Origin: Candidatus Sericytochromatia bacterium
GTDB taxonomy: Bacteria > Cyanobacteriota > Sericytochromatia > S15B-MN24 > UBA4093
NCBI GenBank assembly: GCA_036676495.1
Contig: JAKFCT010000019.1
Span: 504-64,503 of the forward strand
Direction of reading: 5' to 3'
Length of the DNA stretch: 64,000 nucleotides
The position numbers and the translations under genes are program-made. The notes below the pieces were generated by a model. It had not been told where the DNA came from. It was given only the letters and a program-made list of their open reading frames with translations, and made no database searches. Below, piece by piece: positions 28,301 to 64,000 of the stretch; the first letter of the stretch is position 1; each line of letters starts with the position of its first letter.

Positions 28301-28445
28301 GGGGGCACCTCGCGGGGGCGTCCGACGATGTCCTTGCCGCCGAGCGACCACGAGGCGAGGGCTCGGCATGCATCCTCGGGATTATTCCCCCTCGGTGCGG
28401 AGATGTACGAGCCTTGATGAAGATTTGTTGAAGGCTATCGAGGAT

Positions 28446-29843: not shown

Positions 29844-29856
29844 GCTTGCCCTCCTT

Positions 29857-29892
29857 GCGCGTGCTTGCTTGATCATCTCAGCAAGCACGCGC
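29857..29892 (-). terminator. 12-bp perfect hairpin between NHL/IPT gene and dihydropyrimidinase RBS
   Basis: GCGCGTGCTTGC / GCAAGCACGCGC with a 12-nt loop. On the minus strand it ends about 4 nt before the AAGGAGGG RBS. Confidence 0.45.
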
Positions 29893-29943
29893 TTTAGGCA
29901 AGGTTGCTAGCGGATCCGGACCATCTCCGGCCGCGCCGGGAGT

Positions 29944-35746: not shown

Positions 35747-36577
35747 TTACAGCACGATCTTTCGCGATGCGTCTCCGGAGTCCGGTTCATCCTCGCTTGG
35801 CCGGGAGGCGTTCAACTGGCGCCAGGCCATCGGCGGAACGCCGTAGAGCTTGCGGAAGTGGCGCACGAAGTAGTTGGGATCGAAGTAGCCGACCGAGGCC
35901 GCGATGCGCTTGATGGGAGCGTCGGTTTCGAGCATCAGGCGGCGCGCATGCTGCATGCGCACCTCCGTGATCCACTTCTGGATCGACTTGCCGGTTTCAC
36001 GCCGGGCGAGGCTGGTGAGGTACGCCGGAGAGTAGCCGACCCCGTCAGCGACCTCCTGCAACGTGATCGCCGTGGCGTAGTGTGCGTGAATGTACGCAAG
36101 GACGCGATCCATCAGGGACTCCTCGCGGCCGGACGGCTCGCTTGCCCCGGTCTTGGCCGCCGGCAGTGCCTCGGTTGCAGGCAGGGCCTGACGCTGGGCG
36201 TGACCCAGCGCGCGGGCGATCACGGCATCGAGCAGGGAAAGATCCGACAGGGGCTTTTCGAGGAAGTCGAAGCCGCGCCCGTCGCGCAGGGCCGCGACCG
36301 CGTCCTTCACCGTGGCCTGGCCGGAGAGGAAGATCACCGGGACCTCGGGGGCGAACTCCTTAAGCCGATCCAGCAACTGCAAGCCATCCATCCCCGGCAT
36401 GCGCAGATCCGTGAGGACGACCTGAAAGCGCGTGATACGCGCCAAGGCCAGGGCTTCCCGCCCGTCGGCCGCCTCCGAGACGGCGTAGCCCGAGCACGTC
36501 AGCCAGTCGCAAAGCGTGGCGCGAAAGTCGGTGTCGTCCTCGACGATCAGGATCCGCGGGCTGGGAGAGGGGGTCAC
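35747..36577 (-). CDS. response regulator, REC plus AraC-type HTH
   Basis: ILIVEDD...VVLTDLRMPGMDG receiver domain. C-terminal AraC HTH (ITLQEVADGVGYSPAYLTSLARRETG ... IAASVGYFDPNYFVRHFRKLYG). Start uncertain: GTG 36577 follows GGAGG, and the longer ORF-track N-terminus would overlap the divergent kinase gene. Confidence 0.85.
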   Translation of the reverse strand: MTPSPSPRILIVEDDTDFRATLCDWLTCSGYAVSEAADGREALALARITRFQVVLTDLRMPGMDGLQLLDRLKEFAPEVPVIFLSGQATVKDAVAALRDGRGFDFLEKPLSDLSLLDAVIARALGHAQRQALPATEALPAAKTGASEPSGREESLMDRVLAYIHAHYATAITLQEVADGVGYSPAYLTSLARRETGKSIQKWITEVRMQHARRLMLETDAPIKRIAASVGYFDPNYFVRHFRKLYGVPPMAWRQLNASRPSEDEPDSGDASRKIVL

Positions 36578-36680
36578 GACGCTCGACACCTCCGAGACAA
36601 GCAAGTAAAGGATAAGATTAGCACAGGCCGGCGCCCGTGAAATCTGGGCGCTGGGACCTCTGGGCCGCGAAGGGAGCCGC

Positions 36681-49591: not shown

Positions 49592-51883
49592 GTGTTCGGA
49601 GAGAGCCCCGTAGTAACGCGTGAACTGACGCCGATGGCATCTGGAGCCGTGACCCTGCAAGGGCCTCGGCCCGCCAACGAGGACGCGATCTGGCTCGATG
49701 CCGAGCGGGGATTGTTCCTGGTGGCGGACGGCATCGGGGGACCGGGCAAAGGCGACCTGGCCAGCCAGATGCTGATCTCGCTCCTGGAGAGCACCCTCCA
49801 GGCCAAGCCTCAGGCGCCCCTCGACGAGGTCGTCGCCGAGGCCCTGTCCCTGGCAAACCGCAAGATCATCGCCGCCTTCCTGGGCGACCCCGCCCTGAAG
49901 GGCCTCGGCTCCACGGTGACGCTGGCGCTCATCGAGGGAAATCGCCTCAGGCTCTGGCATGTGGGGGATAGCAGGGCTTACCTGCTTCGCGGCAAGAAGC
50001 TCACCTGCCTGACGGAGGATCATACGCTCGCGCGGGTCCTCGAGAAGATGGGCCAGACGCCTCCGGAGAAGGGGGCGCATACCCTGGTGCGCTGCCTCGG
50101 CAAGGACGCGAAGTGCACCTTCGACACCGTGGACGTCAGCCTGGAGCCGGGCGATCGCCTCGTGCTCTGCACGGACGGCGTCTACCGCAGCTGGCGCGAC
50201 GACGAGATGGCCCGCGTGGCCGCCGAGCAGGACCTGCCGGCGATCGCCCAGGAGCTGGCTCAGGGCGCGATCGATCGCGGAGGCACCGATAACGCCTCGA
50301 TCCTCGTGCTGGGCTGGGAGGGAGAATCGCTGTCGCCCGCCGGAGAGACCCTCGAAGACCTCGTGAGCCGCCTCTCCCGCGACGTGGAGCAGGCCACGGG
50401 CTTCGAGGCCGTGGTCGCCGCCGTGGTGAACGCCGCCCAAGGCCTGACCGCCGGAGAGCGCGGCTTCCTCATCACGCTCGATCCCTCCAAGCCTTGGGTG
50501 GTCTTCGACGCCAACGGCCAGCTCCATGAGCTTCCCCCCTACAGCCGCACCATCGCGCAGTGGGTCCTGGAGAGCCGCGAGCCCGTCTGGATCGCCAACG
50601 TCCTCGAGGATTCCCGCTTCAAGGATGCCGGGAGCTTGCTCAACCAGGGCCCGCGCTCCGTCGCATGCGCCCCCTTCGTTGCGGACGGCCAGGTCCAGGC
50701 CGTGCTCTACCTCGATCGGCCCGCCGTCACCCCCGCCGATCCCGCGGCCTTGATGCGCCTCGTCCAGGCCTCCTCCCCTTACCTGGCACTCGCGCTCAGC
50801 GCCTGGCGCTTCGAAGAGCGCGCGCGCCGCCTGACCACCCTGGTCGACCTGGGCACCACCCTCTCCAACGCCTGCGGCGTCGAGGAGACCCTGCGCATCG
50901 TCCTCCAGCACTGCATGACCCTCACCCGGGCGACCGAGGGGGCCATCTTCGAGGGGGGCACCCAGGACTGGCTCGCGGCCATCGACGCCAAGGGCCAGAG
51001 CTTGAGCGAGTTTTCCTTCGACGGGGAGCTGATCGCCCGTGTCCTGAGAGGCTCTCAGGCCGAGCTGGTCATCGGCGGGGGCGCGACCACCACCTCCACC
51101 GCCGTGGGACTCGACCTGACGACCACCATCTGCGCCCCCATTCGCACGGCGGGCAAGAACCTGGGAGTCGTCTACCTCAACGCCAACGCCCTTGTCACCG
51201 ATCTGACCGAGCACGACCTCGCCCTGGTGACCGAGCTCCTGGCCTACGGGGCGCCCTTCATCGAGAGCGGACGCAAGTATACGAGCTTGCAGCAGTCCAA
51301 CGACCAGCTCTCGCAGGCCCTCAGCCGCATGCAGCATACCCTGGGCGAGACCTCCGAGGCACGCCCTGAGGGCAGCCTCGCGGAGCTGCGCCTGGAAGAC
51401 GTCGTCACGGCCCATCTCCAGGCGAAGTCTTCCGGCTGGCTGAAGCTGGAGGGCCCCCACGGAGCGTCCGGCGCGGTCGGCTTGCAAGACGGGAGCCTGG
51501 TTTCTTGCACGACCGGGCTCGGAGAGATGGCTCCGGAGACGGCGCTGGGCGAGCTGCTGAGCTGGGAGGACGGAAGCTTCCGTTTCGAGCCCGGCATGCC
51601 TGGCGGAACCCCCTTGCCGATGGCCATGCTTTACAAGGCGGTCGAGGAAGCCCCGCGCTGGCGCACGGTCAAGGTGCGGGTGCCCGTCCAGGCCGTCCCC
51701 GTGATGCTGGCCGAGCGGGACATCGAGGACTGCCCCCTCGACCAGTGGCAGATCATCCAGCACGTGGACGGCAAGACGTCGGTCAAGGAGCTGGCCAGGG
51801 CGACTCAGCGGCCGCTCTTGAACGTGATGGAGGCGATTCTCGAGCTTCAGGCCTCCTGCACGCTCTACATCCAGAAGGCCTAG
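49592..51883 (+). CDS. PP2C Ser/Thr phosphatase, two GAF domains, DUF4388/PATAN-like C-terminus
   Basis: GTG 49592, 5 nt after GGAGGG (alternative ATG 49634). PP2C motifs RPANEDA, LFLVADGIGG, GTDNASILVL. C-terminal SSGWLKLEGPHGASGAVGLQDGSLVSC...LSWEDGSFRFEPG. Confidence 0.85.
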   Translation: MFGESPVVTRELTPMASGAVTLQGPRPANEDAIWLDAERGLFLVADGIGGPGKGDLASQMLISLLESTLQAKPQAPLDEVVAEALSLANRKIIAAFLGDPALKGLGSTVTLALIEGNRLRLWHVGDSRAYLLRGKKLTCLTEDHTLARVLEKMGQTPPEKGAHTLVRCLGKDAKCTFDTVDVSLEPGDRLVLCTDGVYRSWRDDEMARVAAEQDLPAIAQELAQGAIDRGGTDNASILVLGWEGESLSPAGETLEDLVSRLSRDVEQATGFEAVVAAVVNAAQGLTAGERGFLITLDPSKPWVVFDANGQLHELPPYSRTIAQWVLESREPVWIANVLEDSRFKDAGSLLNQGPRSVACAPFVADGQVQAVLYLDRPAVTPADPAALMRLVQASSPYLALALSAWRFEERARRLTTLVDLGTTLSNACGVEETLRIVLQHCMTLTRATEGAIFEGGTQDWLAAIDAKGQSLSEFSFDGELIARVLRGSQAELVIGGGATTTSTAVGLDLTTTICAPIRTAGKNLGVVYLNANALVTDLTEHDLALVTELLAYGAPFIESGRKYTSLQQSNDQLSQALSRMQHTLGETSEARPEGSLAELRLEDVVTAHLQAKSSGWLKLEGPHGASGAVGLQDGSLVSCTTGLGEMAPETALGELLSWEDGSFRFEPGMPGGTPLPMAMLYKAVEEAPRWRTVKVRVPVQAVPVMLAERDIEDCPLDQWQIIQHVDGKTSVKELARATQRPLLNVMEAILELQASCTLYIQKA

Positions 51884-51906
51884 CGCTTTCGGCCATCGGA
51901 ATCCCA

Positions 51907-51944
51907 AGCGAAAGGGGCGGCGCGAGCCGCCCCTTTCGCTGTTT
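51907..51944. terminator. bidirectional rho-independent terminator
   Basis: 15-bp stem AGCGAAAGGGGCGGC / GCCGCCCCTTTCGCT, GCGA loop, then GTTT. Lies between the convergent phosphatase and kinase genes. Confidence 0.8.
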
Positions 51945-51955
51945 CGAGGGATGTA

Positions 51956-54900
51956 TCAGGTTGCCAATGCGAGCGCCTCGGCCAGGATGCCGGTGACCGT
52001 CTCCAGAGGCGGCAGGTCCTCGGCCCCCAGCGGATTCGCCATCTGACGGCGGACGCAGTAGAGCGTCCCGCGGTCGGCGAGCGGGAGGATGGCCACCGAG
52101 GCCAGATCCACGGCGAAGTTGGACCCGCTCATCTCGCGGGGCAGGTCGATGCCGCAGTGGCTCTGGCGCGTCGCCAGCACCTGGGAGACCAGGTCCATGT
52201 TGAGCGCCGGGGGCTCCGGGCTCTTGGGGTAGGCGGCGATGCAGCGAGGAGGCTGTTCTCCCAGGACAACGGCGGCCTCGTCCAGCTCCAGCTGGTCGAC
52301 GCAGTCCCTCAAGAGCGCGACCAAGAGGCTTTCCTGGCTTCCCCCGGCGAGGGAATGCTGGGTCATGGTCCTCCGCAGCGTCTCCGCCAGCGTGAGGGGA
52401 GCCGCTGCGGCCACAGTCGTCTTGCCGGGGGCCAGCCGCTCGGCCATGGCCTCCATGAGCGGCGTGAGCCGATCGAGGGCCGCGCGCTCGAGGGGATTCG
52501 AGATATCCTTGCGGACGGCATGGAGGAGGGCGATCGCCTGCCCGTCCTTATGGATGGGAGCCAGCAGGGACGAGGTGAGCGCCAGATCGAAGTTCGTCCC
52601 CAGCGAGATCCCGGAGGGGACATCGATGTGGACCTGGCCCTTGCCCTGCGCCAGCACGCGCTGGAGCAGTTGCGGGGGCAGCGGGACCTGGGACCGGGGG
52701 CCGTCGGCGCCCCGGCTCGCGACCCAGCTCACGTCGGGATCGAGCCGGTAGACCGAGCCCTCGTCGGCGTCGAGCAGGTCCAGGGCGATCGCCAGGGCCT
52801 CTTGCACGTAATCGCCCTCCGACGTCGCGGCGTCGAGCTGCCCTTCCCAGGCAAGGCGCCGGGGAACCGTGCCGACCGCCTCGACGAGGATCGTCTCCTC
52901 GGGAGCCTGCAGGGCGTCGATCTCGCGGGTGATCGCCCGCGCGAGGTAGCGGTTGTTGATCGCGCGGAAGCGCGCCCCCGCCTCGCGCAAGGTCTCCAGC
53001 GCTGCTTCCCGATTTCCCTGAGCCAGAAGCAGCTTGCCGCGGGACCTGAGCACATGCCCTTGCTCGATGAGGTTGTCCTGCTCGGGGCGCGACAGGATGG
53101 CCATGGCCTCCTCGAAGCGGCCCTCGGCCTCCGCGAGCGCTCCTTCGGCGAGCGCGAGCTCACCCAGCCACCGGGCCGCGAGGGCCTGGTGCAACGGGTT
53201 CCGGGCGGGACCCGACTCGGCCATGCGATGGGCCTCCGCGAAGGCTTCCCGCGCCGCGGCCTGCTGGCCGCGCATCATGGCGAGTTGCCCGCGCCCGAGT
53301 AGCGCCCGGATGGTGACTAGGAGCAGCTGGTTCTCCCGGCCGCGGCGCTCCACGTCGGCAAAGTCCTGCTCGGCGGCGTCCAGTTCCCCTAGCTCCAGGT
53401 GAATCTGCCCTCGGAGCGTGTGGATGCTGAGCTCCGCGAAGGCATCATGCTCGAGGTGCGGATAGCGCAGGGTCTGAAGTACCTGGGCGAGCGCTTCTTC
53501 GTACTCTCCGCGCTGCCAGTGCAGGTAGGGGCGCAGGTAGAGCGCCCACTGGTAGGGAGGAGCGCCCGTCTTGCGGGAGTTCTGGTTCATCTTCTCGATG
53601 AGGTCCATGGTCTCGTCGTAGCGGCCGGTCCAGGCCGTCCAGATGCCCGTGCGGCCCCAGAAGAAGTTCTTGAAGGAGAACTCGAAGCCCTCGTCGGCCT
53701 TCCGGAGCGCGTAGTCGAGGTGCTCCAGGTCCGGGCGAACGCCCTGGAAGGAAACCGTGAGCCGCGCTCCCATCTGTCCCATCCAGCCCGTGCGGACCGT
53801 GGGATCGTCGAGGATATGCTGCTCGCCTAGCAGTTCGGCGCTGCGCCGGGCGAGCTCCTGGATCTCGTCGAACTGGCCGGCCGGCTTGAGGCAGACGGCG
53901 CTGGCCGCGAGCATGCCGCCTTCGAGGTGCGTGCCCGTGAAGGGCAGCAGGCTCAAGGCCCGCTTGAGGGAGGCCAGGCCCTTCATGGGCTGTCCGCTCA
54001 GCCCGTAGCAAGCTCCCAGGTAGGCATAGGCGATGAGCAGGCGCTGGGTCCAGCTCGGAGGCGGGGGAATGAGGCGCGCGAGCCCCTTCCGGACGCGGTG
54101 CTGGTAGACCTTGGGCTTGGTGAGCTTGGTGACGATGCGCTTGCGGCGATCGGCCGGCAGCTTCATGATCAAGCCCACCAGGCCCTTGAGGATGCGGCTG
54201 GTCCGCTCGATGTTTCCCTGCGCCTCCATGGCCGGGATCAGCTTCTCCAGCACCTCGATGCCGATCTTGGGCCAGGCCTGGGTGCAGAGCCGGCCGATGT
54301 TCCACCAGAGGTCGACCTGATGGGTCTCCTTGTCGGGGTAGTCCAGCGTGGCGAGCAGCTCCTCGGCATGCTTCCAGTTCTGGATGGCGATCGCCGCATG
54401 CCCCGCGTCACGAGCCTGATCGCCCACCATGCGCAGGTACTCGAAGGCCTTGACGCCGTCATGGCCTCTCAGGAAGTGATAGGCCAGCTCGTTGATGACC
54501 GTGACCCGATCGCCGGCATGCTGGCGCTCGATGAACTCGCCGTAGCGCTGGTGCAGATCGCGCCGCTCCGCGTCGGGCATGTCCTCGTAGAGGGCTTCGC
54601 GGACCCGGTCATGCGGGAAGGTGTAGGTATGATCCTCGCGGAGGATGAACTGGCGTTCGATCAGCTCGTCGAGATGCGCGAAGAGCTCTTCCTCGCCGAG
54701 GCCGCTTAAGGCGAGCAGCCGATCGAGATCCTGGTAGCGCCCGATGACCGACGCCACGCGCGCCAACTTTCGGGCGCCCTCGCTGAGCTGGGCCAAGCGC
54801 CTGACGATCGCCGCCTCGACGCTGGTCGGAAGGACGAGGTTCCCGACGTCCTCCGGGAAGAGCCAGACGCCGTCCGTCTGGACCAGGATGCCTTCTTCCA

Positions 54901-56494
54901 TCAGGTAGCGCAGGACCTCGGTGATGAAGAACGCGTTGCCCGCCGTCGACTCGTAGAGGAACTGGCTGAACTCCGGGCTGATGCGGTACTGCCGCAGCAT
55001 CGCCTGGAGCAGGTCGAGGACATGCGGCAAGGTGAAGGTCTCGAGCTTGAGATCCCGGGTGAGGCCTTCTTCGATGGTGTACCAAAGGGGGCTGCTCGGA
55101 GGAGCCTCGTCGCTGCGGAAGGTCGCGAGGCAGAAGAGCTTTGCCTCGGTCACCTGACGGATGACGTGGTTGAAGACCTCCAGGCTTTGCGCGTCGCTCC
55201 AGTGAAGGTCGTCGAAGAAGAGCAGCAAAGGCGTCCGCTCGCTCACCGAGCGCAGCCAGTCGGAAACCGTTTCGGTCAGCCGGGCCTTTTCCAGGTTCGG
55301 CTCGAGGGCGGGGGCCGCCTTGATGCCATGCTTGGCGAGTTCCGGCATGATCTTGGCCATCACCGGCCCGAAGCGCGCGATCTCCTCCTCCGTCGAGAGC
55401 GAGACCAGCTGCCTGAGCGCCTGAGCGAGTGGCTCGTACGGCTCCATGCCGGTTTCGAGGCACTGACCGTGGAGCACGGGCACGTCGGCCAGCTTGGCAT
55501 GCAGCGTGAGCTCGTGGACGAGCCGGGACTTGCCGACGCCCGCCGGGGCGCCCACGAAGACCGAGCGCCCCTTCCCCGAGAGGGCCTCGGCGAACGCGCC
55601 TTCGAGCAGGGCGAGCTCCCGGTCGCGGCCGATCAGCGCGCTGCTCATCAGGTAGCTGCGCTTCTGCGCGAGATTCTCCCGGCTGATGCGCAGGCCGGAG
55701 ATTTCCGCCAGATCGGCGATCACCTCGGCGGCCTCCTGGTAGCGCCGCGCCTGATCCTTTTGCAGCAACCGGCTGATGAGGGTCTCGAGCCGTTCGGGAG
55801 CGTCGGGCCTCAGGCTCCGCAGCAAGGGCGGCTCCTGGTTGATATGCGCCTTGATGACCTCCACCACGCTTCCCGTGAAGGGTAGCCGGCCCGCCAACAT
55901 CTCAAACGCGAGGCAACCCAGGGAGTACAGGTCCGAGGACGCGTTGATGACGCCTCCCTTGGGCACTTCAGGCGGAAGGTAGCCCGGTGTGCCGGTCAGT
56001 TTGCCGTTGGAAGGGATACCGAGCTGCTCCATCAAGCCGAAGTCCATCAGCTTGAGCGTGCCGTCCTCGGTGATGCGGATGTTGTCCGACTTGATGTCCC
56101 GGTGCACGTAGAGCCGGGAATGAATGAACCCCAAGGCTTGCAGCAGCTGGATCAGCAGGCCGTAGGCCCGCTCCAGCGGCAATGGCCCCTGTTGCAGCAG
56201 CTGGGCGAGATCCTGCCCGGAAACCACCTCCATCGTCAGGTAACGGGTCTGGGCGTCCAGCATCCCGTAGTCGTAAACCTCGACGGTGTTGGGGTGCTTG
56301 AGCTTCATCATCGCCCGGAACTCTTCCTGGAAGCGAAGCTTCAGCTCCGGAGTGGTGCTGCCCTGCATCTGGATGGTCTTGAGCGCCACGACGCGCTTGT
56401 CCCGAAGGGGGTCTTCCACCCGGTACACCGTTCCCATGCCGCCGCGACCCAGCTCGGCGAGCACACGGAAACGGTTGGCCATCATTTGCTCCAT
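51956..56494 (-). CDS. Ser/Thr protein kinase with STAND/AAA ATPase, TPR and two GAF domains (1512 aa)
   Basis: [25 protein letters not shown]. Walker [12 protein letters not shown]. Long TPR-like middle. C-terminal GAF-like segments. The start overlaps the upstream MCP stop by 13 nt. Confidence 0.9.
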
Positions 56495-57888
56495 GCGATC
56501 AGCTCCCCTCGATGAGCCTTCGGGACCTGACCCGCCGCATGGGCCGATCCCTGGAATTCCTGGAAGTGGGCGATGGTTTCCTTGAGGCGGTCGGCCTCGG
56601 CCTGCAGATCCGCGGCCATGCCGTTGATCTTGGTGAAGGCCTCGACGACCCGGTCCCCGCCGGCATGGTTCTCGGAGGTGGCGCGCTTCAGCTGTTCGGC
56701 GATCCGGGTCATGGACTCGACGGCCCCGACGATGCGCTCGCCGTCCCGGACCTGCTGCTGACTGGCCAGCGTGATGTGGTTCATGTGATCCGAGGCGCGC
56801 GAGATCGCCGTGACGATCGCCTGGAGCGCCAGGCCGGCGTTCTGAGCGAGCTTCAGGCCCGACTGGATGGTCGTGTCCCCCTGGCGGGTCAGGCGGTTGA
56901 CCTCGTCGGTCTCATGCTGGATGCCGCCGATGCGCTGGGTGATCTCCCCGGCCGCCTGAGCGGCATGCTCGGCGAGCTTCTTGACCTCTTCGGCCACGAC
57001 GGCGAAGCCGCGGCCTTGCTCCCCGGCCCGGGCCGCCTCGATCGCCGCGTTCAGCGCCAGGAGGTTGGTCTGCTTGGCGATCCCGTCGATCACCGTCAGG
57101 AAGGCCCCGATCTCGGTCGAACTGCGCTCCAGGTCCTCGACCGTCTCCACGATCTCCGTCATGACGCGCGTGACCTGGCTCATGCCCTCGATGGCCTTGT
57201 CCACCGCCTCGCGGCCCTCGCGGGCGGCCTTGAAGGCCTCTTCCTTGGCCTCGCTCGCCAGCTGCACGTTGCTGCCCACCTCCCGGATGCTCGCGATCAT
57301 CGTCGCGATCGACCGGGACGTGTCCTCGACGTTGGCCCCCAGGATCCGTGCCTCACCTTCGAGGCGACCGAGCCCGACCGCCATGAGGTCCACGGACTGC
57401 GTGCTCTCCGCGAGCGTCCCCTTGGAAAGCCCCGCCGCCTGAGCGACGCGGTGCGAGGAGTGGCGCACCTGACCGGTGATGCCCCGCAATTCGACGATCA
57501 TGCGCTGGAAACTTCGGCCGACCTCTCCGATTTCGTCACGCGAGGCGATCGCCACGTCCTGGGAGAGATCCCCGTTCCCCAGCGCCTGGCTGCAGCGCTT
57601 CAGCTCCTCGAGCGGCTTGACCACCCACCGCACGATGACGTAGCTCATGAACGCCGTGGCGAGCACTCCGGCCCCGCACAGCAGGCCAATGATCAGCGGA
57701 GTGCCCCCGAACTTGCCGAGGATCCAGCCATAGGCCAGGCAGACGAAGATCAGGGGAATCGTCATGGTCACCATCTTGTAGACCATGCCGGTCCGGAACT
57801 TCAGGAAGAGCGCGAGGTTGATCACGGCGATCAGGGTGGTGGGGATGCCGAAGACCAACAAGAACTCACCCAGGATGCTACCGTTCAT
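56482..57888 (-). CDS. methyl-accepting chemotaxis protein lacking an extracytoplasmic sensor domain
   Basis: ATG 57888 after AAGGAG. Three closely spaced TM helices, then [36 protein letters not shown]. Confidence 0.9.
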
Positions 57889-58525
57889 TTCCGTCTCCTT
57901 CGATCGGCCATGGGCCTTCCATCAACCGCCATCCCGCTCCCTCCACCGCGAGGGAGGCCACGTATCCCGGCGCCGGATCGAGCGACCGCAGCGTCCATCC
58001 CTCCGCCGTCCCCGCTCCGGAGGCCAGGCCCTCTCCTTGGCCCTTGCCTTGCGCTTCCCGCCGGGTCCAGGCCCGGAAGAACTCCGCCTCCCGCTGCGCG
58101 CCGTCGAGCGTGGCCAAAAGCTCGCTCTCCCGCGCCGTCAGGACGCGCTCGGCGAGCCGGTCGATCCGCTCGACGGGCCGGATCCGCTCCAGATCGATCC
58201 CGACCTCCCGCTGCCAGGACAGCGCGTAGGCCGCCCGCCCATGCGAGTGAGAGAGGTTGAAGCGTATCGAATGCCCCAAAAGCGCAGGCTTCCCGTGCGT
58301 CCCGTAGCGAAAGCGCAAGTTCCCAGGGCGCTCGCCGAGCCGCTCCCCGAGCAGCTCCCGCAAGATCCCCCGGCCGGCGATGAAGCGCGCGCGATCCTGC
58401 GCGAAGACGAAGCGCGCGGCCCGCTCGCGCTCGTCCTCCGTAAGGAGCCGGCTCAGCGCCTCCAGCCTGTCCTCGGACAGGTCCAGCGCCGCGTAGACCA
58501 CGCTTACCTCAGCGCCGCTCACCAT
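57878..58525 (-). CDS. Sfp-type 4'-phosphopantetheinyl transferase
   Basis: ATG 58525 after [45 protein letters not shown]. Confidence 0.88.
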
Positions 58526-61500
58526 GACCTCCCGCAGCCGGGACCGCCAGGAATCCCGCCCTCACGAAGTAGCCGAAGGCCGTCCCCAGCAAGGCCGGTA
58601 AGGGAGGGCATGCAACCTCCCCGGCCAGGCTCCGGAAGGTCTCCTGGCAATCGAAATGCGGCATCCGCTCCTGGAAGAACATCTCGAGCAGCGGAGTGGG
58701 CCCCGCCTCTTCGGACGTGAACTGATGAACCAGCGGATAGAGCGGATGCTCGGGATCCTTCCCGGCCTGCGCCAGCAGGGCGTGCTTCCATTCGGCGTAA
58801 GGAAGCAGGCGAATCGAGTAGCCCTGCTTCTGGAGCTCCATGACGATCCGGCGCCAGGGCATGGGCTCGGGGTGGGCCAGGTGGTAGACCTTCCCGGCGG
58901 CCTCGGGGCGCCGCGAAAGCGAGACGATGGCCTGGCTCACGACGTCCACCGGGATCCAGTCGATCTCCAGCTCCACGTCCGGGGCCGCCGCCAGCGCGAT
59001 GCAGCCCTTCAGGAGGCGGCTGACCATGTCCTCGAGGTTGGAGTGGCCCGTCTGGCTCGCGCCCGAGATGAATCCCGGCCGGTAAAGGGTCGTCGGGATC
59101 CCCCGTGCCTGAGCTGCCGCCACCAGGCGATCGGAGGCCCACTTGCTCTGCGCGTACCCGCCGAAGAGCTCGGAGGCATGCCCGGGAGGATCGCTCTCCG
59201 TCACGCGCCCAGCCGTCGCATAGGTGTCGGTCGCGAAGAGGTTCAGCGTCGAGAGGCTATGCACCGGCTTCACCGGCCCAAAGGCGGCCAGTCTCAGGAT
59301 CTCCCGGGTACCCAGGACATGCACCGCCCGCAAGGCCGCATACGGATAGAGGTGATTGGGCTGGGCTCCCGAATGGTAGATGGCGTCCACCCGCAGGGCC
59401 AGCTCCTCGAAGGCCGCTTCGCTCAGGCCGAGGCGCGGCCTGGCGAGGTCGCCGATGACCGGGACGATCCGCGAGGCGAAGCCCTCTTCCCAGAGCTCAT
59501 ACGCCTCCATGGCGGCCCGGATCCGGGAGGCTCCGTGCTCGGCGCCCTCCGCCCGCACCAGGCAATGCACGGTCGCCGAGGTCGCCCGCAGCAGATCCCG
59601 GAGCAGGTACGGCCCCAGGAAACCCGTGGCTCCGGTCAGGAAGAGGTCATGCGGCTTTCCGGGAGGGGGGCCGTCCGCTCGGATATCGTCGTCCAGCGCG
59701 ATCTCGCTCTCCCAGTCGATCTCCGACGTTGCCCCTGCCTCTCCGGCAAGGCTGGCCAGGATTTCCCCGGCCAGCGCCTCGACGCCGTGGCCTTCCAGGA
59801 ACTTGACCACGCTCAGGCTCACCTCCAGGTCCGCCTCCACGGCGTTTCTCAGCTCCGTGGCCATCAAGGAGTCGATGCCCAGCTCATGGAGGGAGCGTTG
59901 GGGGTCGAGCTTGGAGGCCGGGATGCGGAGAATGCGGCTCAAGGACCCGCTCAAGTAGGTGATCAGGAGCGTTCTCGCCTCGGCGCGAGGCAAGGCCGTG
60001 AGCGTCGCGCGATCGAGGCCCGGCGCGACCTCCTGTATGCTCGGCAGCAGGCCTTCGGCCAGGCGCCGAAGCAGCGGAAGGCGCCGGGCAGAACCGGCGA
60101 ACGCTCTCCAATCGATGGGCATGACGGCCGCATGGACCGCCTTGGAGGCCAGGAGGCGGCTGAAGGCGGCCATGCCGCGCTGCGGATCGAGGCTGGTGAC
60201 GCCCTGGAGCGCCAAACGATCCCCCCGATTCTCCTGTTTCGCGGCGAGACCCACCGACGCGAACGGCCCCCAGTTGATACTGCAGCCCGTACGCCCCTGG
60301 GCATGCCTCACATGGGCGAGGGCGTCGAGGGAGGCGTTCGCGGCGGCATAGTTTGCCTGGCCGGGAGAGCCGAAGAGCGCGGCAGCGGACGAGAAGAGGG
60401 CGAAGAAATCGAGGTCGGCGTCGAGGCTCAGCCGGTGGAGGTTCCATGCTCCCGCGACCTTGGGCCGCATGACGGCCTCGAGGCGCTCGGAGTCGAGCTG
60501 AGCCAGCATGCCGTCCGCCAGGATTCCCGCAGCATGCACGATCCCCTTCAAGGGCGGCAACGCGCCAAGACGCTCGAAGACCTTTGCCATGGCCCCGGCG
60601 TCCGCAACGTCTGCATGGAAGACCTCCACCCGGACGCCTGCCGCGCGCAGCTCGGCGAGTGTCCGCTCGGCCTCGGCGCTCGGAGCCCGACGTCCCAGGA
60701 GCGCAAGGGTCCCGGCGCCGTTTTCCGCCAGCCAGCGGGCCACTTCCAGGCCGAGACCCCCGAGTCCGCCGGTGATCAGGTAGGTGCCCTCGGCGCTCAG
60801 CGCCATGTCCACGGGCTCCGGGGTGAAGCGAGAGAGCCTTGCGACGTAGCGGCCGGTCGTTCGGAGGCAGACCTGGTCGTCCGGATGGACCGCCAGGAGC
60901 TCCGTCAGGAGGGCTTGCGCCTGATCGGTGGGCGTCGAGGCGTCCAGATCGATCAGCGTGGTCTTCAACTCGGGATGCTCGTTGGCCAGGGAACGTCCCA
61001 GTCCCCAGATCGGCGCCTGGGCAGGCGAAATCGGGGTGAGCCCCCCGGCGGGATGCACGCCGGCCGTGACGAGCCAGAGGCGGGGGGGCGCGGAGAGCCG
61101 GGTCAACGCTTGCGCCAGGTGCATGGCGCTTTCGACCCCCGAGGCATCCGTCGGGTCGTCCAGGGAGCTTTCGGGCAGGGTCAGGCCGCCCAGATGGACC
61201 ACCGCCTCGAAGGAGGTTGCCGACAGGGCCTGGCGGGCAGCTTCCACGGAGCTTGCGAGCTGGACGCGGGCCGATCGGGCTTCCAGCAGGCTTGCCAGCG
61301 CGGGGGCCACGCCCGTGTCGTCGCTGAGCAAGAGCCAGGACCGCGGTTCAGTGCCTGCCACGGCGGTATCCGTCTTGACGGTTTCCGTCTTGGCGGCGGT
61401 CGCCTCGGGGCTCTCGACGGGGATCCAGTCCAGCCGGTAGTAGCCGTCGTCGGGGGCATGCGTCAGCGGCTTGAAGCTCAGGCCCTTGAGCTCCGCGATC

Positions 61501-64000
61501 CGGCGGCCATGGGCGTCGAGCAGGGTCAGGTCGCCCCGGAGGGAGGAGCGGGTGAACTCGAGCAGCGTCGCATGGCTGTAGAGCTCGCCTTGAGGGCGCT
61601 CCAGCAGGTGCAGGGAGTCGATTCCCACGGGAAGGTAGGCGCCGGCGTCGTCGGGAATCAGGGAGGCCAGGACCTGAAGGCAGGCGTCGAGCAGGGCGGG
61701 GTGGAGGCGGTAGCGATCGCGTTCGGAGGCGATCGCCCCCGGCGCGACCACGCGTCCCAGGGCTTCGCCGCGTCCCACGTGCAGCGCTTCGACTCCCCGG
61801 AAGGCGGGGCCGTACTCCAGGCCGCGCGCGGCCAGCTTAGAGGTGAGATCCGCACCCGCGAGGCGCTCGGGACAGCGGGCCAACAGGGCCTCCAGGTCCG
61901 CGTTCGCGGCGGGGGCCGGGGAGTCCTGGATCGTGGCGCTGGCGTGAAGCGTCCAGGCGGAGTCGCGGAGGCTGGAGACGTGGAAGCGCGCCTCGCCCCC
62001 CGGCATGCGCTCGAGGACGGTCTGGACGCGGAGCGTGCCCTCGGCGGGAAGGAAGAGCGCTTTCTTGAACTCCAGGGCCGCGAGGGTGACGGGGCCGGCT
62101 CCGAAGGCCTCCTGATAGGCCGCGAGGGCCATCTCCACGTAGGCCGTGCCCGGAAGGACGGGCATGCCCATGACGGCATGGTCGGCCAGGTAGGGCAGGC
62201 GCTCGATCGCGATCTCGGTTTCCCAGAAGGACGTTCCCGGCTGCAGCGACGAGCTCAGACGCGGGCCGAGGAACGGATGGCCTTGCGGGGGCTGGGGTTT
62301 CGGGCTTTTCGGAACGATCCGGTAGCGTTCGTGCTGCCAGGGAAGGGTCGGCAGGGGAGTCAGCTGCCCCTTGGGGGCGATCGCCTTCCAATCGACCGGG
62401 AAGCCTTCGGTGTAAAGGGCGCCGAGGCTCTCCAGCATGGCCGAACGCTCCTGCTCACGGCGCAGGGACGGCAGCGCCTTGCCGTCGAGGCCTTGATGAC
62501 GCAGGCAATCGGCCACGGCCTGGGTCAGGACGGGGTGGGGGCTCACTTCCAGGAAGCGGGTATGCCCTTCTTCGGCGAGCAATCGGACGGCCGTCTCGAA
62601 GAGCACGGGCTCGCGGAGGTTGCGCATCCAGTACGCGGCATCGAGCTCGGTGCCGTCGAGCCTGCGGCCTTCGACGGTGGACATGAAGGGGACGGTCGCG
62701 CGCTGGGGCGCGATCGGAGCCAGGGCTTCGAGCAGGTCGGGGCGCAGGGCGTCCATCTGAGGGCTATGCGAGGCCACGTCCACCTTGACCGGGCGGCAGA
62801 AGATCTGGCGCGATTCCAGGCGCTCCATGAGGGCCTGGAGGGCCTCGGGGTCCCCGGAGATCACGGTGGAGCGAGGGGCGTTGCTCACGGCCACGGAGAG
62901 CCGGTCCTCGAGGCCTGCGAGGGCCGATTGGGCCTCCGTGAGGGAGAGCTCGGTCACGGCCATGGCGCCCTGGCCGCTGAGGCGGCGCATCAGGCGGCTA
63001 CGCAGGCAGATGATCCGGGCGGCGTCGTCGAGGCTGAGGATGCCGGCGACGTGGGCGGCGGCGACCTCTCCCATGCTGTGCCCGGTGACGACGGCAGGCA
63101 CGATCCCCCAGGAGCGCCAGAGGGCGGCGAGCGCGACCTGGATGGCGAAGAGCGCGGGCTGGACATGGTCGATCTCGGCATGCCAGCCGGTCTCGGAGGG
63201 AGATTCGAGGCGTTCGAGCAGAGAGCCCTGCGAGTAGGGGCGCATGGCGGCGTCACAGCGGGCGATCGCCTCGCGGAAGACCGGCTCGCTGGCGAGCAGC
63301 TCGCGGCCCATGCCGATCCATTGCGAGCCTTGCCCCGGGAAGACGAGGACCAGTTTCTGAGCCTTTCGCGGGAGCTTGCGGCCGTACACCACCCCAGGAT
63401 GCGCTTCTCCCGAGAGGAAGGCCCTGAGACCGTCCTTCAGCTCCGCGTCCGTGGAGGCGACGACGGCGAGGCGGTGGTCCAGGTGGCTGCGCCGGAGGCT
63501 CGCGGTGCGGGCCCGATCGGAGAGGGGGGTGTCGAGGGAGAGGTGGCGGCGTGCCAGCTCTTGGAGGCTTTCCGGGCCGTGCGCGGAGAGCGGAACGAGC
63601 ATGGCTCCGGTCGTCGGGGGCTCGGCGGGCGGGTTCTGGGGGGCTTCCGCGAGCACGACGTGCGCGTTGGTGCCGCCGAAGCCGAAGGAGCTGACTCCGG
63701 CGATCGCCGGGCCTTCCGGCCAGCTCTCCAGCGACGTGGGCACCCGCAAGGGAAGCTCGGCGAAGGGGATGTAGGGGTTGGGCTGCGAGAAGTGGAGGTT
63801 GGGCGGGATCTGGCGGTGCTTCAGGGCGAGGGCGGCCTTGATGAGGCCGGCGACCCCCGCGGCGGCTTCCGTGTGCCCGATGTTGGTCTTGACCGATCCC
63901 AGGAGGCAGGTCCGGCCCTCCGGGCGATCCTGACCGAGGACCGCTCCCAGGGCCTTGGCTTCGATGGGATCTCCGAGCAAGGTCCCGGTGCCATGGGCTT
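58509..64000 (-). CDS. type I polyketide synthase, KS-AT-DH-KR-ACP-thioester reductase (5' partial, continues beyond window)
   Basis: Frame open to base 64000 (AHGTGTLLGDPIE). KS C-terminal part about 63642-64000 (NIGHTEAAAG). AT about 62481-63359 (GHSMGE). DH about 61446-62282 (HAVMGMPVLPG). KR about 60246-61340 (TGGLGGLG, GQANYAAAN). ACP about 59751-59993 (LGIDSLMATEL). Reductase about 58581-59648 (LTGATGFLG, YAQSKW). No ER or TE. Confidence 0.93.
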   Translation of the reverse strand, partial: AHGTGTLLGDPIEAKALGAVLGQDRPEGRTCLLGSVKTNIGHTEAAAGVAGLIKAALALKHRQIPPNLHFSQPNPYIPFAELPLRVPTSLESWPEGPAIAGVSSFGFGGTNAHVVLAEAPQNPPAEPPTTGAMLVPLSAHGPESLQELARRHLSLDTPLSDRARTASLRRSHLDHRLAVVASTDAELKDGLRAFLSGEAHPGVVYGRKLPRKAQKLVLVFPGQGSQWIGMGRELLASEPVFREAIARCDAAMRPYSQGSLLERLESPSETGWHAEIDHVQPALFAIQVALAALWRSWGIVPAVVTGHSMGEVAAAHVAGILSLDDAARIICLRSRLMRRLSGQGAMAVTELSLTEAQSALAGLEDRLSVAVSNAPRSTVISGDPEALQALMERLESRQIFCRPVKVDVASHSPQMDALRPDLLEALAPIAPQRATVPFMSTVEGRRLDGTELDAAYWMRNLREPVLFETAVRLLAEEGHTRFLEVSPHPVLTQAVADCLRHQGLDGKALPSLRREQERSAMLESLGALYTEGFPVDWKAIAPKGQLTPLPTLPWQHERYRIVPKSPKPQPPQGHPFLGPRLSSSLQPGTSFWETEIAIERLPYLADHAVMGMPVLPGTAYVEMALAAYQEAFGAGPVTLAALEFKKALFLPAEGTLRVQTVLERMPGGEARFHVSSLRDSAWTLHASATIQDSPAPAANADLEALLARCPERLAGADLTSKLAARGLEYGPAFRGVEALHVGRGEALGRVVAPGAIASERDRYRLHPALLDACLQVLASLIPDDAGAYLPVGIDSLHLLERPQGELYSHATLLEFTRSSLRGDLTLLDAHGRRIAELKGLSFKPLTHAPDDGYYRLDWIPVESPEATAAKTETVKTDTAVAGTEPRSWLLLSDDTGVAPALASLLEARSARVQLASSVEAARQALSATSFEAVVHLGGLTLPESSLDDPTDASGVESAMHLAQALTRLSAPPRLWLVTAGVHPAGGLTPISPAQAPIWGLGRSLANEHPELKTTLIDLDASTPTDQAQALLTELLAVHPDDQVCLRTTGRYVARLSRFTPEPVDMALSAEGTYLITGGLGGLGLEVARWLAENGAGTLALLGRRAPSAEAERTLAELRAAGVRVEVFHADVADAGAMAKVFERLGALPPLKGIVHAAGILADGMLAQLDSERLEAVMRPKVAGAWNLHRLSLDADLDFFALFSSAAALFGSPGQANYAAANASLDALAHVRHAQGRTGCSINWGPFASVGLAAKQENRGDRLALQGVTSLDPQRGMAAFSRLLASKAVHAAVMPIDWRAFAGSARRLPLLRRLAEGLLPSIQEVAPGLDRATLTALPRAEARTLLITYLSGSLSRILRIPASKLDPQRSLHELGIDSLMATELRNAVEADLEVSLSVVKFLEGHGVEALAGEILASLAGEAGATSEIDWESEIALDDDIRADGPPPGKPHDLFLTGATGFLGPYLLRDLLRATSATVHCLVRAEGAEHGASRIRAAMEAYELWEEGFASRIVPVIGDLARPRLGLSEAAFEELALRVDAIYHSGAQPNHLYPYAALRAVHVLGTREILRLAAFGPVKPVHSLSTLNLFATDTYATAGRVTESDPPGHASELFGGYAQSKWASDRLVAAAQARGIPTTLYRPGFISGASQTGHSNLEDMVSRLLKGCIALAAAPDVELEIDWIPVDVVSQAIVSLSRRPEAAGKVYHLAHPEPMPWRRIVMELQKQGYSIRLLPYAEWKHALLAQAGKDPEHPLYPLVHQFTSEEAGPTPLLEMFFQERMPHFDCQETFRSLAGEVACPPLPALLGTAFGYFVRAGFLAVPAAGGHGERR

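Follow-up and report, generated by a model that had tools for sequence, protein, structure and literature searches.

The large Ser/Thr kinase encoded downstream of a type I polyketide synthase (PKS) in this Sericytochromatia genome is probably a real regulatory or sensing partner of that synthase, because the kinase-PKS pairing recurs in distant relatives, and the methyl-accepting chemotaxis protein (MCP) encoded between them is, judging from its distribution, a recent insertion specific to one shallow clade (~80% identity). The account that we favour, if only tentatively, is that of a fatty-acid-extending PKS pathway with the kinase as its dedicated signalling partner, whose GAF tail would bind the product or an intermediate, the MCP having been inserted later. 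Sericytochromatia are uncultured, non-photosynthetic relatives of cyanobacteria whose physiology is known from genomes alone. The whole stretch of DNA that was analysed (64,000 nucleotides, hereafter the window) appears to hold the 3' two-thirds of a six-gene operon (FAAL-ACP-PKS-PPTase-MCP-kinase), the FAAL and ACP genes being deduced from relatives. The PKS is truncated at the window edge, where its translation begins at the KS motif AHGTGT; since the window end cuts this gene, the KS cysteine, the stand-alone ACP and the FAAL are known from relatives alone. The only exact record of the window's PPTase was a 1.9-kb Logan contig, and none turned up for the MCP, so relatives served to reconstruct the missing part. 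The features discussed below are the following.

58509..64000, minus strand: type I PKS, C-terminal 1829 aa of ~2130, KS(C-terminal part)-AT-DH-KR-ACP-thioester reductase (Pfam and motifs)
58512..59639, minus strand: terminal thioester-reductase (R) domain of the PKS (TIGR01746, MxaA homology)
57878..58525, minus strand: Sfp/HetI-type 4'-phosphopantetheinyl transferase (PPTase), 215 aa (Pfam ACPS and AASDHPPT_N)
56482..57888, minus strand: MCP, 468 aa, three transmembrane (TM) helices, HAMP and signalling domain (Pfam, hydropathy, orthologue alignment)
57625..57888, minus strand: three-helix membrane module of the MCP, residues 1-88 (Kyte-Doolittle, window 19, above 1.6)
51956..56494, minus strand: Ser/Thr kinase-AAA_16 STAND NTPase-MalT-type TPR-tandem GAF, 1512 aa (Pfam)
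52463..52825, minus strand: GAF domain 1 of the kinase, residues ~1224-1344 (PF01590, 25.1 bits on the subsequence)
51959..52396, minus strand: GAF-like domain 2 of the kinase, residues ~1367-1512 (hhalign to GAF1)
51908..51939, no strand assigned: GC-rich hairpin lying between the stop codons of the kinase and the phosphatase, which face each other; probably a bidirectional terminator that marks the operon 3' end
49520..51883, plus strand: PP2C phosphatase-GAF-PATAN (DUF4388/PatA_N), 787 aa ORF convergent to the kinase (Pfam; Stp1-type PP2C)

The four minus-strand ORFs (kinase, 51956-56494; MCP, 56482-57888; PPTase, 57878-58525; PKS, from 58509 to beyond 64000) had been described in a sequence-only reading of this DNA as overlapping stop to start by 17 nt (PKS/PPTase), 11 nt (PPTase/MCP) and 13 nt (MCP/kinase), with a ribosome-binding site for each start. 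Both points hold, since the overlaps are exact when the junctions are read and a Shine-Dalgarno-like sequence lies 5' of each start (GGGAGG for the PPTase, AAGGAG with a 6-nt spacer for the MCP and GGGGAG with an 8-nt spacer for the kinase). When genes are called by GC3 across the whole window, three of 21 pairs of same-strand neighbours overlap, all within PKS-PPTase-MCP-kinase, and the junction sequences are near-identical across orthologous loci. A sequence scan of positions 49000-64000 found zero sigma-70-like promoters (other promoter types being outside its reach) and five terminator-like sites where 4.7 were expected, i.e. chance level. The hairpin after the kinase has a 15-bp perfect stem (-36.6 kcal/mol, z -4.75; none of 200 shuffles folds equally well) and lacks a classical U-run on the minus-strand, operon side. 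Exact and conserved overlaps that are unique in the window, no internal promoter signal and a hairpin after the last gene thus support a tightly coupled operon. Its promoter may be further upstream, since in clade members a 160-210-nt spacer between an ALDH gene and FAAL carries conserved motifs, which suggests that transcription would start there. The ALDH, found upstream of FAAL in all clade members, was considered as a pathway member and set aside: it is a generic SSADH-like enzyme, separated by the conserved spacer and absent near the more distant locus L008, and is probably a separate unit. An ALDH-TPR gene recurs in another kinase locus (L013), and ALDH may handle an aldehyde.

The domain order read from the letters (KS-AT-DH-KR-ACP and a terminal reductase, with neither ER nor TE in the visible part) was recovered by Pfam as KS(C-terminal part)-AT-DH-KR-ACP-NAD_binding_4, neither ER nor TE being found. 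The catalytic motifs are intact: the KS contributes HGTGT and KTNIGH, which complete the Cys-His-His triad with the DTACSS cysteine motif present in all orthologues (68-74% identity, 2120-2148 aa), the AT has GHSMG and VASH, the DH has HAVMGMPVLP and DACLQ (HxxxGxxxxP and DxxxQ), the KR has GGLGGLG, LAD and NYAAAN, and the ACP has GIDSL. The R domain, which carries TGATGFLG and YAQSK, scores 326.8 bits against TIGR01746 (curated cut-off 213) and, among solved structures, comes nearest to that of MxaA (4U7W, E 3.4e-90), which bears out the earlier proposal of a lipid-type PKS with reductive release. The best named homologues of the PKS are from Sorangium, Archangium and Stigmatella; with the high GC and the STAND kinases they hinted at a myxobacterial source, a reading discarded because the relatives of the kinase belong to Sericytochromatia. 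Since the VASH motif of AT domains goes with methylmalonyl and other branched extenders (PMC7327777), a methylmalonyl extender is probable.

The other components of the pathway come partly from relatives. FAAL and a stand-alone ACP adjoin the PKS in five clade relatives and in the more distant loci L008 and L021; the best NCBIfam matches of these FAAL are PRK05850 fatty-acid--AMP ligase (484 bits) and FadD32 (435 bits), both under the curated cut-offs, and the stand-alone ACP matches the ACP of Pks13. The best NCBIfam match of the PPTase is HetI (154 bits, under the cut-off of 370), and in the LC031 lineage the gene has been deleted, relics of both its ends remaining. From these domains and motifs, a chemistry can be proposed in which FAAL would adenylate a fatty acid and transfer it to the stand-alone ACP. 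The chain would then be elongated once by the single PKS module, probably with methylmalonyl, and taken by the B-type KR and the DH to an (E)-2-enoyl thioester, which the MxaA-like R domain would release reductively as a 2-(methyl)-2-alkenal or allylic alcohol, with both carrier proteins primed by the HetI-like PPTase. Of the aldehyde or alcohol first envisaged, the mode of release is thus retained, and the scheme is extended to one module, FAAL/ACP priming and a branched extender: the product would be a fatty acid lengthened by a single unit, likely methyl-branched, and released as a 2-enal or an allylic alcohol.

How old is the association between this pathway and the kinase? Conservation of gene order had been put forward as a check on the operon, and the order PKS-PPTase-MCP-kinase is indeed kept in five related loci. 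In L002/L003, L004, L006 and L009, an ALDH is followed by FAAL-ACP-PKS-(PPTase)-MCP-kinase and then by the convergent PP2C-GAF-PATAN gene. Synteny within a clade at ~80% identity is weak evidence. In L008/L016 (isolate LC003), the order is kinase-FAAL-ACP-PKS, with no MCP and no PPTase, the identities being 48% over 1515 aa for the kinase, 56% for FAAL, 52% for ACP and 47-49% for the PKS, and a third genome (L021) has the same order, which makes two lineages outside the clade. The kinase orthologues align over their full length at both distances (81-84% identity in the clade, 48% in L008). Since adjacency has outlived a change of gene order at 48% identity, the kinase-PKS link appears deep. 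Moreover, of the six full-length PKS relatives of at least 47% identity, the five with a retrieved neighbourhood (all but P0122) either adjoin this kinase or lie on a contig that stops before it.

Beyond PKS, kinases of this family are found with other acyl carrier protein cassettes. In L104, a tandem-GAF kinase ends an FkbH-hydrolase-ACP-TE-kinase series with a 4-nt overlap, a FabA-like gene being also present, and in L013 a tandem-GAF kinase is found with ACP, SDR, ALDH-TPR, luciferase-like monooxygenase, crotonase, TE and PP2C-GAF genes. An ACP cassette lies beside the kinase in five of six tandem-GAF lineages versus none of three short-form lineages (no GAF2), a small tally of lineages that are not phylogenetically independent (Fisher ~0.05, by hand). 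A quite unlikely alternative is that kinase and pathway are not directly linked in function. A signalling island (MCP, kinase and PP2C-PATAN, joined in relatives by CheW and a second MCP) would then simply abut a lipid cassette, and co-transcription would reflect genome compaction or shared timing, for instance in an envelope-remodelling or motility programme. This view would be in keeping with the variable slot beside the phosphatase (CheW plus MCP, CheW alone, nothing or a PARP-like gene), with the link between PATAN and control of the cyanobacterial pilus motor (10.1101/2021.06.11.447907) and with kinase relatives that have no acyl genes nearby: none lie within 5-10 kb of the tandem-GAF kinase of L010 (UBA8530), and none were seen near the kinases of L017 and L024. 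A metagenome scan with the kinase alignment returned 80 loci, nearly all of them remote AAA_16 proteins, the true relatives being L024 and L025, both without FAAL and PKS. However, mere proximity would hardly explain why kinase-PKS adjacency held through reordering at 48% identity in three genomes, why two more relatives share an operon with other ACP cassettes and why the overlapping junctions are conserved. A functional link between kinase and PKS is therefore likely on this genomic evidence, and the conserved partner set would consist of the kinase, a PP2C phosphatase and an ACP-dependent cassette.

The kinase itself has the architecture that had been claimed. Pfam finds Pkinase, AAA_16 (87 bits, cut-off 32.6), TPR_MalT (44.2 bits, marginally below the cut-off of 45) and a weak GAF; the catalytic motifs are intact ([20 protein letters not shown] and DFG; [23 protein letters not shown]) and the Walker A motif G-x-GKS is invariant in the kinase alignment (A1), in line with a STAND kinase. 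Two GAF domains can also be upheld, the first being detected in seven of seven orthologues (best E 1.8e-9), while the second, uncalled by Pfam, proves homologous to it by hhalign (probability 98.6%, E 5.9e-16) and is missing from the short-form paralogues L011, L017 and L024. The GAF tail is the most divergent part of the kinase (27-33% identity between clades versus 45-49% elsewhere), which fits a sensor changing with the neighbouring chemistry. No NKFDE motif is visible in either GAF (alignment A2), which sets them apart from the cNMP-binding tandem GAF of PDE/CyaB type, and a PDB sequence search with the tail gave zero matches. To our knowledge, no GAF domain has been described that binds fatty enals or alcohols. 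The opposing activity would be provided by the convergent PP2C-GAF-PATAN protein, which is 81-83% identical and in the same position in all clade members, a PP2C gene being also found near most other kinase relatives (L010, L013, L016, L017 and L020).

In the model that we tentatively favour, the STAND kinase with its tandem GAF tail, opposed by this phosphatase, would be a dedicated signalling partner of the acyl pathway; the GAF tail would most likely bind the product or an acyl intermediate and set kinase activity, creating a synthase-plus-receptor loop whose output is protein phosphorylation. That the GAF domains sense the PKS product is plausible. The genomic data are compatible with either direction, i.e. 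the kinase senses the product or it controls the enzymes. In the latter case, a possibility that we consider real if on balance unlikely, kinase and phosphatase would control the pathway, the former integrating other cues (nucleotides, metabolites, TPR partners) and switching FAAL, PKS or ACP by phosphorylation, the latter reversing it. The same kinase-cassette synteny applies here, PP2C genes beside the majority of kinase relatives are what a reversible switch would need, and there are precedents in M. tuberculosis, where FAS-II enzymes are regulated by Ser/Thr phosphorylation (PMC4949712) and PknK acts over mymA (PMC4601284). Nevertheless, the cassettes differ (PKS; FkbH/TE; SDR/ALDH/crotonase) so that a conserved enzyme substrate is not obvious, and both the correlation of GAF2 with the cassettes and the fast divergence of the GAF tail fit ligand tracking better.

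A role of this STAND kinase in anti-phage defence, with merely incidental neighbours, was considered in view of strong PADLOC matches to the kinase models PD-T4-6 and mad6 and of the Eco57I-type methylase and PARP-like genes found in the window. These matches, however, are confined to kinase residues 2-270, with none to the STAND, TPR or GAF regions; the MCP, PPTase and PARP-like proteins have no meaningful matches, and the conserved partners are biosynthetic. In the absence of a full-length match and of partner genes, PD-T4-6 and mad6 were rejected, and this explanation is barely credible.

The case of the MCP is different. As first noted, it has three tightly packed TM helices (hydrophobic segments 3-31, 33-60 and 60-87, with loops of 5-6 residues) and no periplasmic ligand domain, HAMP following at 85-135 with nothing hydrophobic after it. 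Pfam scores are high for MCPsignal (156.6 bits, cut-off 34.6) and HAMP gives 55.5 bits, the hairpin tip of the signalling domain is canonical ([28 protein letters not shown]), and identity in the clade (79-84%) exceeds that of the PKS (68-74%). Together with the retention in place of the gene and its ribosome-binding site after PPTase loss in LC031, this points to a protein that looks functional and is under constraint. L008 and L021, which both retain kinase-PKS adjacency, lack the MCP, and among 5.8 billion clustered proteins its relatives comprise three close orthologues and one distant, non-syntenic homologue (P0005 in L007, 41% identity), which has the same three-TM build and adjoins PAS histidine kinases, with no PKS. 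The idea that the three-helix MCP, along with the GAF domains, directly senses a PKS-derived lipid that is in the membrane or diffusing, leading to taxis towards or away from a self-made lipid, draws on the position of the MCP, translationally coupled between PPTase and kinase, on its persistence after PPTase deletion and greater conservation than the PKS, and on the lack of a periplasmic domain, which requires sensing to be membrane-embedded or cytoplasmic. It is difficult to reconcile with a kinase-PKS link that does without the MCP in L008 and L021, with the PKS-free setting of P0005, with the TM module being the least conserved region (52% of positions invariant versus 87% in the signalling domain, in four orthologues) and with the finding that no CheA or CheY is encoded in the window, in which CheW was not found either. 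Since deeper relatives have no MCP, a homologue lies elsewhere and the TM region is divergent, this idea rests on one shallow clade; sensing of the PKS product by the MCP is weakly supported, and as an explanation of the locus it is less probable still than the absence of any functional link. The original suggestion that the lipid is sensed by the MCP and/or the GAF domains is thus partly supported, above all as regards the kinase-PKS link, which persists through rearranged synteny at 48% identity, and much less as regards the MCP. In our preferred model, insertion of the MCP would have made a chemoreceptor subject to the transcriptional and translational control that governs the lipid pathway. 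Since CheW adjoins the MCP-bearing locus in L002/L003 and L006, and a second MCP also flanks it in close relatives, the receptor presumably feeds a Che/Tax-like pathway encoded elsewhere, which would couple motility behaviour to lipid-pathway expression.

The pairing of a GAF kinase and PP2C phosphatase with an ACP cassette, which resists rearrangement, yields a testable hypothesis of lipid signalling or pathway control in Sericytochromatia and would mean that the regulation of lipid synthesis by kinases, a mycobacterial paradigm, extends to a distant phylum, while the MCP insertion is a natural experiment on recruitment of a chemoreceptor into a metabolic operon. At ~9.5 kb, FAAL-ACP-one-module PKS-R-PPTase is compact enough for heterologous expression, so that its product and the effect of the latter on purified kinase can be tested culture-free. 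One could go further and imagine a family of Sericytochromatia STAND kinases in which the GAF tail is the receptor for the acyl molecule made by the adjacent cassette, here a self-made 2-methyl-2-alkenal/alkenol lipid signal that the kinase would read and that would also steer motility via the MCP and the PATAN phosphatase. This is a long shot; if true, it would define a new class of autoinducer synthase-receptor pair built on a eukaryote-like kinase rather than on a LuxR or histidine-kinase receptor.

No relevant description of a FAAL-PKS-R cassette coupled to a kinase or MCP was found in the literature, nor anything relevant on chemotaxis in Sericytochromatia, and the known systems each resemble parts of the locus. 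The R domain is homologous to that of the myxalamid synthetase MxaA, with the TGxxGxxG and YxxxK signature. MxaA, which ends the NRPS module of a large hybrid line, yields a primary alcohol by four-electron reduction, whereas the R domain here ends a single fatty-acid-extending PKS module and either two- or four-electron release is possible. As in mycobacterial FadD32-Pks13, a FAAL would pass a fatty acyl to a carrier protein, and the PKS would condense it once, but Pks13 joins two long chains by Claisen condensation with TE release instead of KS-AT-DH-KR-ACP chemistry with reductive release, the FAAL scores are all below equivalog cut-offs and the lineages are unrelated. Within the same phylum (Cyanobacteriota), the heterocyte-glycolipid island (hglE/hetM-hetN-hetI) also combines a PKS chain, release by a thioester reductase and a HetI-type PPTase in the locus (PMC11804610). 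That island, however, has a KS-CLF/iterative PKS, glycosyltransferases and exporters that are missing here, and no FAAL priming; membership was rejected since the unit lacks an HglE-type KS-CLF, a glycosyltransferase and an exporter, and its HetI match is 154 bits against a cut-off of 370.

On the signalling side, MCP-type receptors, CheW and a PATAN protein cluster together as in the Tax/Pix systems, and PATAN domains bind the type IV pilus motor in cyanobacteria (10.1101/2021.06.11.447907; PMC11181946). In Tax/Pix, however, PATAN is fused to a receiver domain downstream of CheA, whereas it is fused here to PP2C-GAF, there is no local CheA or CheY and the receptor has neither a photosensory nor a ligand-binding domain. 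In Streptomyces, the Ser/Thr kinase AfsK and the STAND-ATPase/TPR protein AfsR govern polyketide secondary metabolism as separate proteins, AfsR carrying a SARP DNA-binding domain, whereas kinase, STAND, TPR and GAF are here in one polypeptide with no DNA-binding domain. In M. tuberculosis, the lipid-modifying mymA operon includes the acyl-activating enzyme FadD13. The operon is controlled via VirS by the STAND kinase PknK (PMC4601284), in which, as in the protein described here, a soluble Hanks-type kinase is joined to a STAND NTPase and encoded beside a lipid operon. The difference is that PknK works through an AraC-type factor and lacks a GAF tail, whereas the present unit shows no DNA-binding partner, its kinase is co-operonic with the FAAL-PKS and PP2C-GAF-PATAN is a fixed neighbour. 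Ser/Thr-kinase-linked lipid biosynthesis is a known theme, of which the PKS-MCP-kinase arrangement would be a variation.

Sericytochromatia are non-photosynthetic sister lineages of the oxygenic cyanobacteria, and in the member studied here ORF calling placed the four minus-strand genes for a type I PKS, a PPTase, an MCP and a kinase (51956-64000) exactly where the sequence-only reading had put them. Reading of the junctions bore out the stop-to-start overlaps (17 nt for PKS/PPTase, 11 nt for PPTase/MCP and 13 nt for MCP/kinase) and the purine-rich Shine-Dalgarno-like element claimed before each of the three start codons. When genes were called by GC3 across all 64 kb, 21 same-strand neighbouring pairs resulted, of which only the three in this operon overlap, and the junctions of orthologous loci are almost identical in sequence, including RBS, start and overlapped stop. 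The PKS-PPTase-MCP-kinase order recurs in related loci (L002/L003 and L006) and, minus the PPTase, in L004/L005. A simple scan of 49000-64000 returned no sigma-70-like promoters, and terminator-like sites no more often than chance would. The operon probably ends at a hairpin facing a phosphatase gene:

51908-51939, between the convergent kinase and phosphatase stops, 15-bp perfect hairpin (-36.6 kcal/mol, z -4.75)
49520-51883, plus strand, PP2C-GAF-PATAN phosphatase, the same gene as in the clade relatives

The window is cut inside the PKS gene, and the complete order of the clade was taken from L002/L003, L004, L005, L006 and L009 (the contig of the last stops within the MCP). It reads ALDH, spacer, FAAL (590 aa), ACP (86 aa), PKS (2120-2148 aa), PPTase, MCP and kinase, with the PP2C-GAF-PATAN phosphatase gene convergent to it and, beyond that gene, a variable slot and then a peptidase M3 gene. 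Since the spacer between ALDH and FAAL is 160-210 nt long and carries conserved motifs, the operon probably starts with FAAL, ALDH being a separate unit outside it. These spacers all lie outside the window:

L002:767-977, ALDH-FAAL spacer
L004:1356-1515, ALDH-FAAL spacer
L006:802-960, ALDH-FAAL spacer
L009:7803-7961, ALDH-FAAL spacer

Conserved in them are repeated (T/A)CACG(T/A)AA boxes and GGGTATACAACGGTTGTTTGA, within which lies the palindrome CAACGGTTG, while the FAAL start has a conserved GGAGTGCC-CGATG. The spacer elements are candidate promoter/operator sequences of the operon.

We conclude that the whole is an operon for a PKS with one module, probably primed by FAAL and releasing its product reductively. 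A domain search found the PKS domains already read from the DNA, i.e. the C-terminal part of KS, AT, DH, KR, ACP and an NAD_binding_4 reductase (R), and neither ER nor TE in the window's part of the protein. The KS motifs HGTGT and KTNIGH are present in the window and DTACSS was read in orthologues; the motifs of AT (GHSMG), DH (HxxxGxxxxP and DxxxQ/H), ACP (GIDSL) and R (TGATGFLG and YAQSK) are intact, and the KR has GGLGGLG, the catalytic Tyr and a B-type LxD motif (LAD in the window, LDD in L008). The R domain scores over the curated thioester-reductase threshold (TIGR01746) and its nearest solved structure is the myxalamid reductase MxaA (E 3.4e-90), which reduces to the alcohol. The best family matches of the FAAL are FAAL/FadD32-like, under the equivalog cut-offs. 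The AT fingerprint is VASH, a motif that in the literature goes with branched extender units, methylmalonyl among them, rather than with malonyl (PMC7327777). From these features we infer a product that would consist of a fatty acid plus one unit, probably methyl-branched and with an (E)-2 double bond, and that would leave the enzyme as an enal or allylic alcohol.

The domain search confirmed the PPTase, which is of the Sfp type and whose best family match is HetI, under the equivalog cut-off. In the LC031 lineage (L004:9930-10030, L005:5758-5852) its gene has been deleted, the ~45 nt from PKS stop to MCP start being relics of both its ends in different frames (N-terminal VVSRDEA..., C-terminal ...EGPRPIEGDGCER and stop). 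The operon-encoded PPTase is therefore dispensable. The AAGGAG RBS and the start of the MCP were kept intact despite this deletion, which indicates that the operon has retained its MCP along with the region that couples PKS to MCP.

Six full-length PKS relatives were found, and the neighbourhoods of five of them (all except P0122) were compared. The PKS adjoins the kinase in L002/L003, L004/L005, L006 and L008; in L009 the contig breaks off inside the MCP gene, before the kinase position. Whether the coupling to signalling genes is meaningful is decided chiefly by the more distant relatives. P0131, the next full-length PKS relative (47% identity, same architecture), belongs to Sericytochromatia isolate LC003 (L008/L016), in which the order is kinase, FAAL, ACP, PKS, and the MCP and PPTase are both absent from the locus, with PP2C-GAF genes a few kb upstream. 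The LC003 kinase is a full-length orthologue (48% identity over 1515 aa), and identity is 56% for FAAL, 52% for ACP and 47-49% for PKS. In a third genome (L021), the C-terminus of the kinase is followed by FAAL, ACP and PKS. Gene order in L008 and L021 being different, the kinase-PKS adjacency has survived rearrangement, which is stronger evidence than collinear synteny. That a signalling island is merely juxtaposed with a lipid cassette is improbable for this very reason, the two having been rearranged and yet remaining adjacent.

Two observations concern these loci themselves. The 45-nt kinase-to-FAAL gap of LC003 (L008:7866-7910) holds a short hairpin (GGGGGC-TGGA-GCCCCC), immediately after which come a GGGAGG RBS and TTG as start codon, and the hairpin may be an attenuator or processing site between kinase and biosynthetic genes. 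L018 and L021, from a MAG labelled 'Stenomitos sp. isolate SMAG_U16504', have 66-69% GC and Sericytochromatia-type kinase-FAAL-ACP-PKS genes; the label, that of a filamentous cyanobacterium, looks like mis-binning or misclassification.

Beside more distant kinases, other cassettes are found. At L104:5529-13702 (Logan SRR22870122), a carrier-protein cassette (FkbH_N, alpha/beta-hydrolase, ACP, thioesterase) ends, with a 4-nt overlap, in a tandem-GAF kinase, i.e. one with both GAF1 and GAF2 (47% identity). Upstream lie genes for another STAND kinase and a FabA/ApeI-like dehydratase. Here the same kinase family is paired with a different carrier-protein chemistry. At L013:430-16418 (Logan SRR28401810), the genes on either side of the kinase (52% identity) encode ACP, SDR, an ALDH-TPR fusion, crotonase, thioesterase, a luciferase-like monooxygenase and two PP2C phosphatases (one PP2C-GAF), a set that suggests fatty-aldehyde or acyl metabolism. 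An ALDH also precedes FAAL in the window's clade. No acyl genes lie near the kinase of L010 (52% identity; UBA8530), nor near the short-form paralogues that end after GAF1 (L011/L012/L025, L017 and L024). In a small and phylogenetically non-independent sample, five of six tandem-GAF lineages stand beside ACP-dependent cassettes versus none of three short-form lineages, which is suggestive of GAF2 presence going with cassette adjacency. A PP2C gene lies near the majority of kinase relatives. As judged from gene neighbourhoods, the recurring kinase-cassette pairing is real, and we conclude that the conserved signalling partner of the PKS operon is the STAND-GAF kinase/PP2C pair.

The kinase has the expected Pkinase, AAA_16, MalT-type TPR and weak GAF domains, and the catalytic motifs of its kinase domain are intact. 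An anti-phage reading was rejected, the PADLOC matches spanning the generic kinase domain only. GAF1 (~ residues 1224-1344) was detected in all seven orthologues, and since the last 146 residues are homologous to it (hhalign probability 98.6%, E 5.9e-16), the statement that there are two GAF domains holds. No part of the kinase diverges faster than this tail (27-33% identity between clades versus 45-49% for the other non-kinase portion), as one would expect if it tracked the differing chemistry of neighbouring cassettes. The mechanism that we consider most likely, with somewhat less than even confidence, is one in which the GAF tail would sense the PKS product or an acyl intermediate and set kinase output, the MCP being a clade-specific add-on that would link motility to pathway expression. 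In the main rival, which is rather unlikely, the kinase would control the pathway enzymes by phosphorylation, after the mycobacterial precedents of PknK-VirS-mymA (PMC4601284) and of Ser/Thr phosphorylation of lipid-synthesis enzymes (PMC4949712).

The MCP consists of HAMP and signalling domains after three hydrophobic segments (residues 3-31, 33-60 and 60-87; loops KFRTG and GKFGGT), and since HAMP directly follows these there is no periplasmic domain, as first described. Its hairpin tip is canonical and its conservation (79-84%) exceeds that of the PKS, so that it looks functional. Among 5.8 billion clustered proteins, it has three close orthologues (79-84% identity) and one 41% homologue, all other matches covering the generic signalling domain only. 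In the LC031 lineage, it stayed while the neighbouring PPTase went and the flanking slot was reshuffled. The link between MCP and PKS is weakened by the lack of an MCP in deeper relatives with the kinase-PKS pairing, by a homologue of the same three-helix build in L007 that adjoins PAS histidine kinases without a PKS, and by the membrane module being the least conserved region. The proposal of the sequence-only reading that the MCP senses the PKS lipid is possible, if quite improbable; the chemoreceptor is a shallow, lineage-specific feature. CheA, CheY and CheW are all absent from the 64-kb window, and close relatives have CheW and a second MCP adjacent to the locus. In cyanobacteria, the PATAN domain binds the type IV pilus motor (10.1101/2021.06.11.447907; PMC11181946). 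Given the relatives' CheW and second MCP and the PATAN domain of the phosphatase, a Che/Tax-like motility pathway is the most plausible connection of the operon MCP. Another MCP in the window (1581-3620, plus strand; 679 aa, HAMP and signalling domain, longer N-terminal region) means that this organism has several chemoreceptors.

The window also shares the peptidase M3 gene with its clade relatives. In relatives, the slot between it and the phosphatase gene is either empty or occupied by CheW, with or without a 4HB-MCP. It is a gene-turnover hotspot, and its occupant in the window has no NCBIfam or PADLOC match:

47906-49438, minus strand, PARP-like protein of 510 aa (weak PARP catalytic-domain match, E 3.8e-7)

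Elsewhere, a PDZ-HisKA histidine kinase and an AraC-type response regulator (35747-39104) lie ~13 kb from the operon, and a similar pair (L011/L012:371-3440) lies ~7 kb from a short-form kinase paralogue; they may be a remnant of ancestry common to both kinase neighbourhoods. A run of genes at 22257-31866 (minus strand) encodes three large proteins with NHL/beta-propeller repeats (655, 854 and 640 aa), interspersed with an amidohydrolase and genes without family match.

All component families were already known: type I PKS with TIGR01746 reductase, FAAL, Sfp/HetI-type PPTase, MCP and PknK-like STAND kinase. Literature searches turned up neither a FAAL-PKS-R cassette sharing an operon with a STAND-GAF kinase or MCP nor anything on such coupling in Sericytochromatia. 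The cyanobacterial hgl/hetMNI island, which combines a PKS with reductase and HetI, offers a likeness; the operon was rejected as such an island since it lacks that island's membership features. For the release step, the closest analogy is MxaA, and for the MCP/CheW/PATAN context it is the Tax/Pix systems. Among the closest functional analogies are AfsK/AfsR of Streptomyces and, in mycobacteria, PknK-VirS-mymA together with the Ser/Thr-kinase control of mycolate enzymes.
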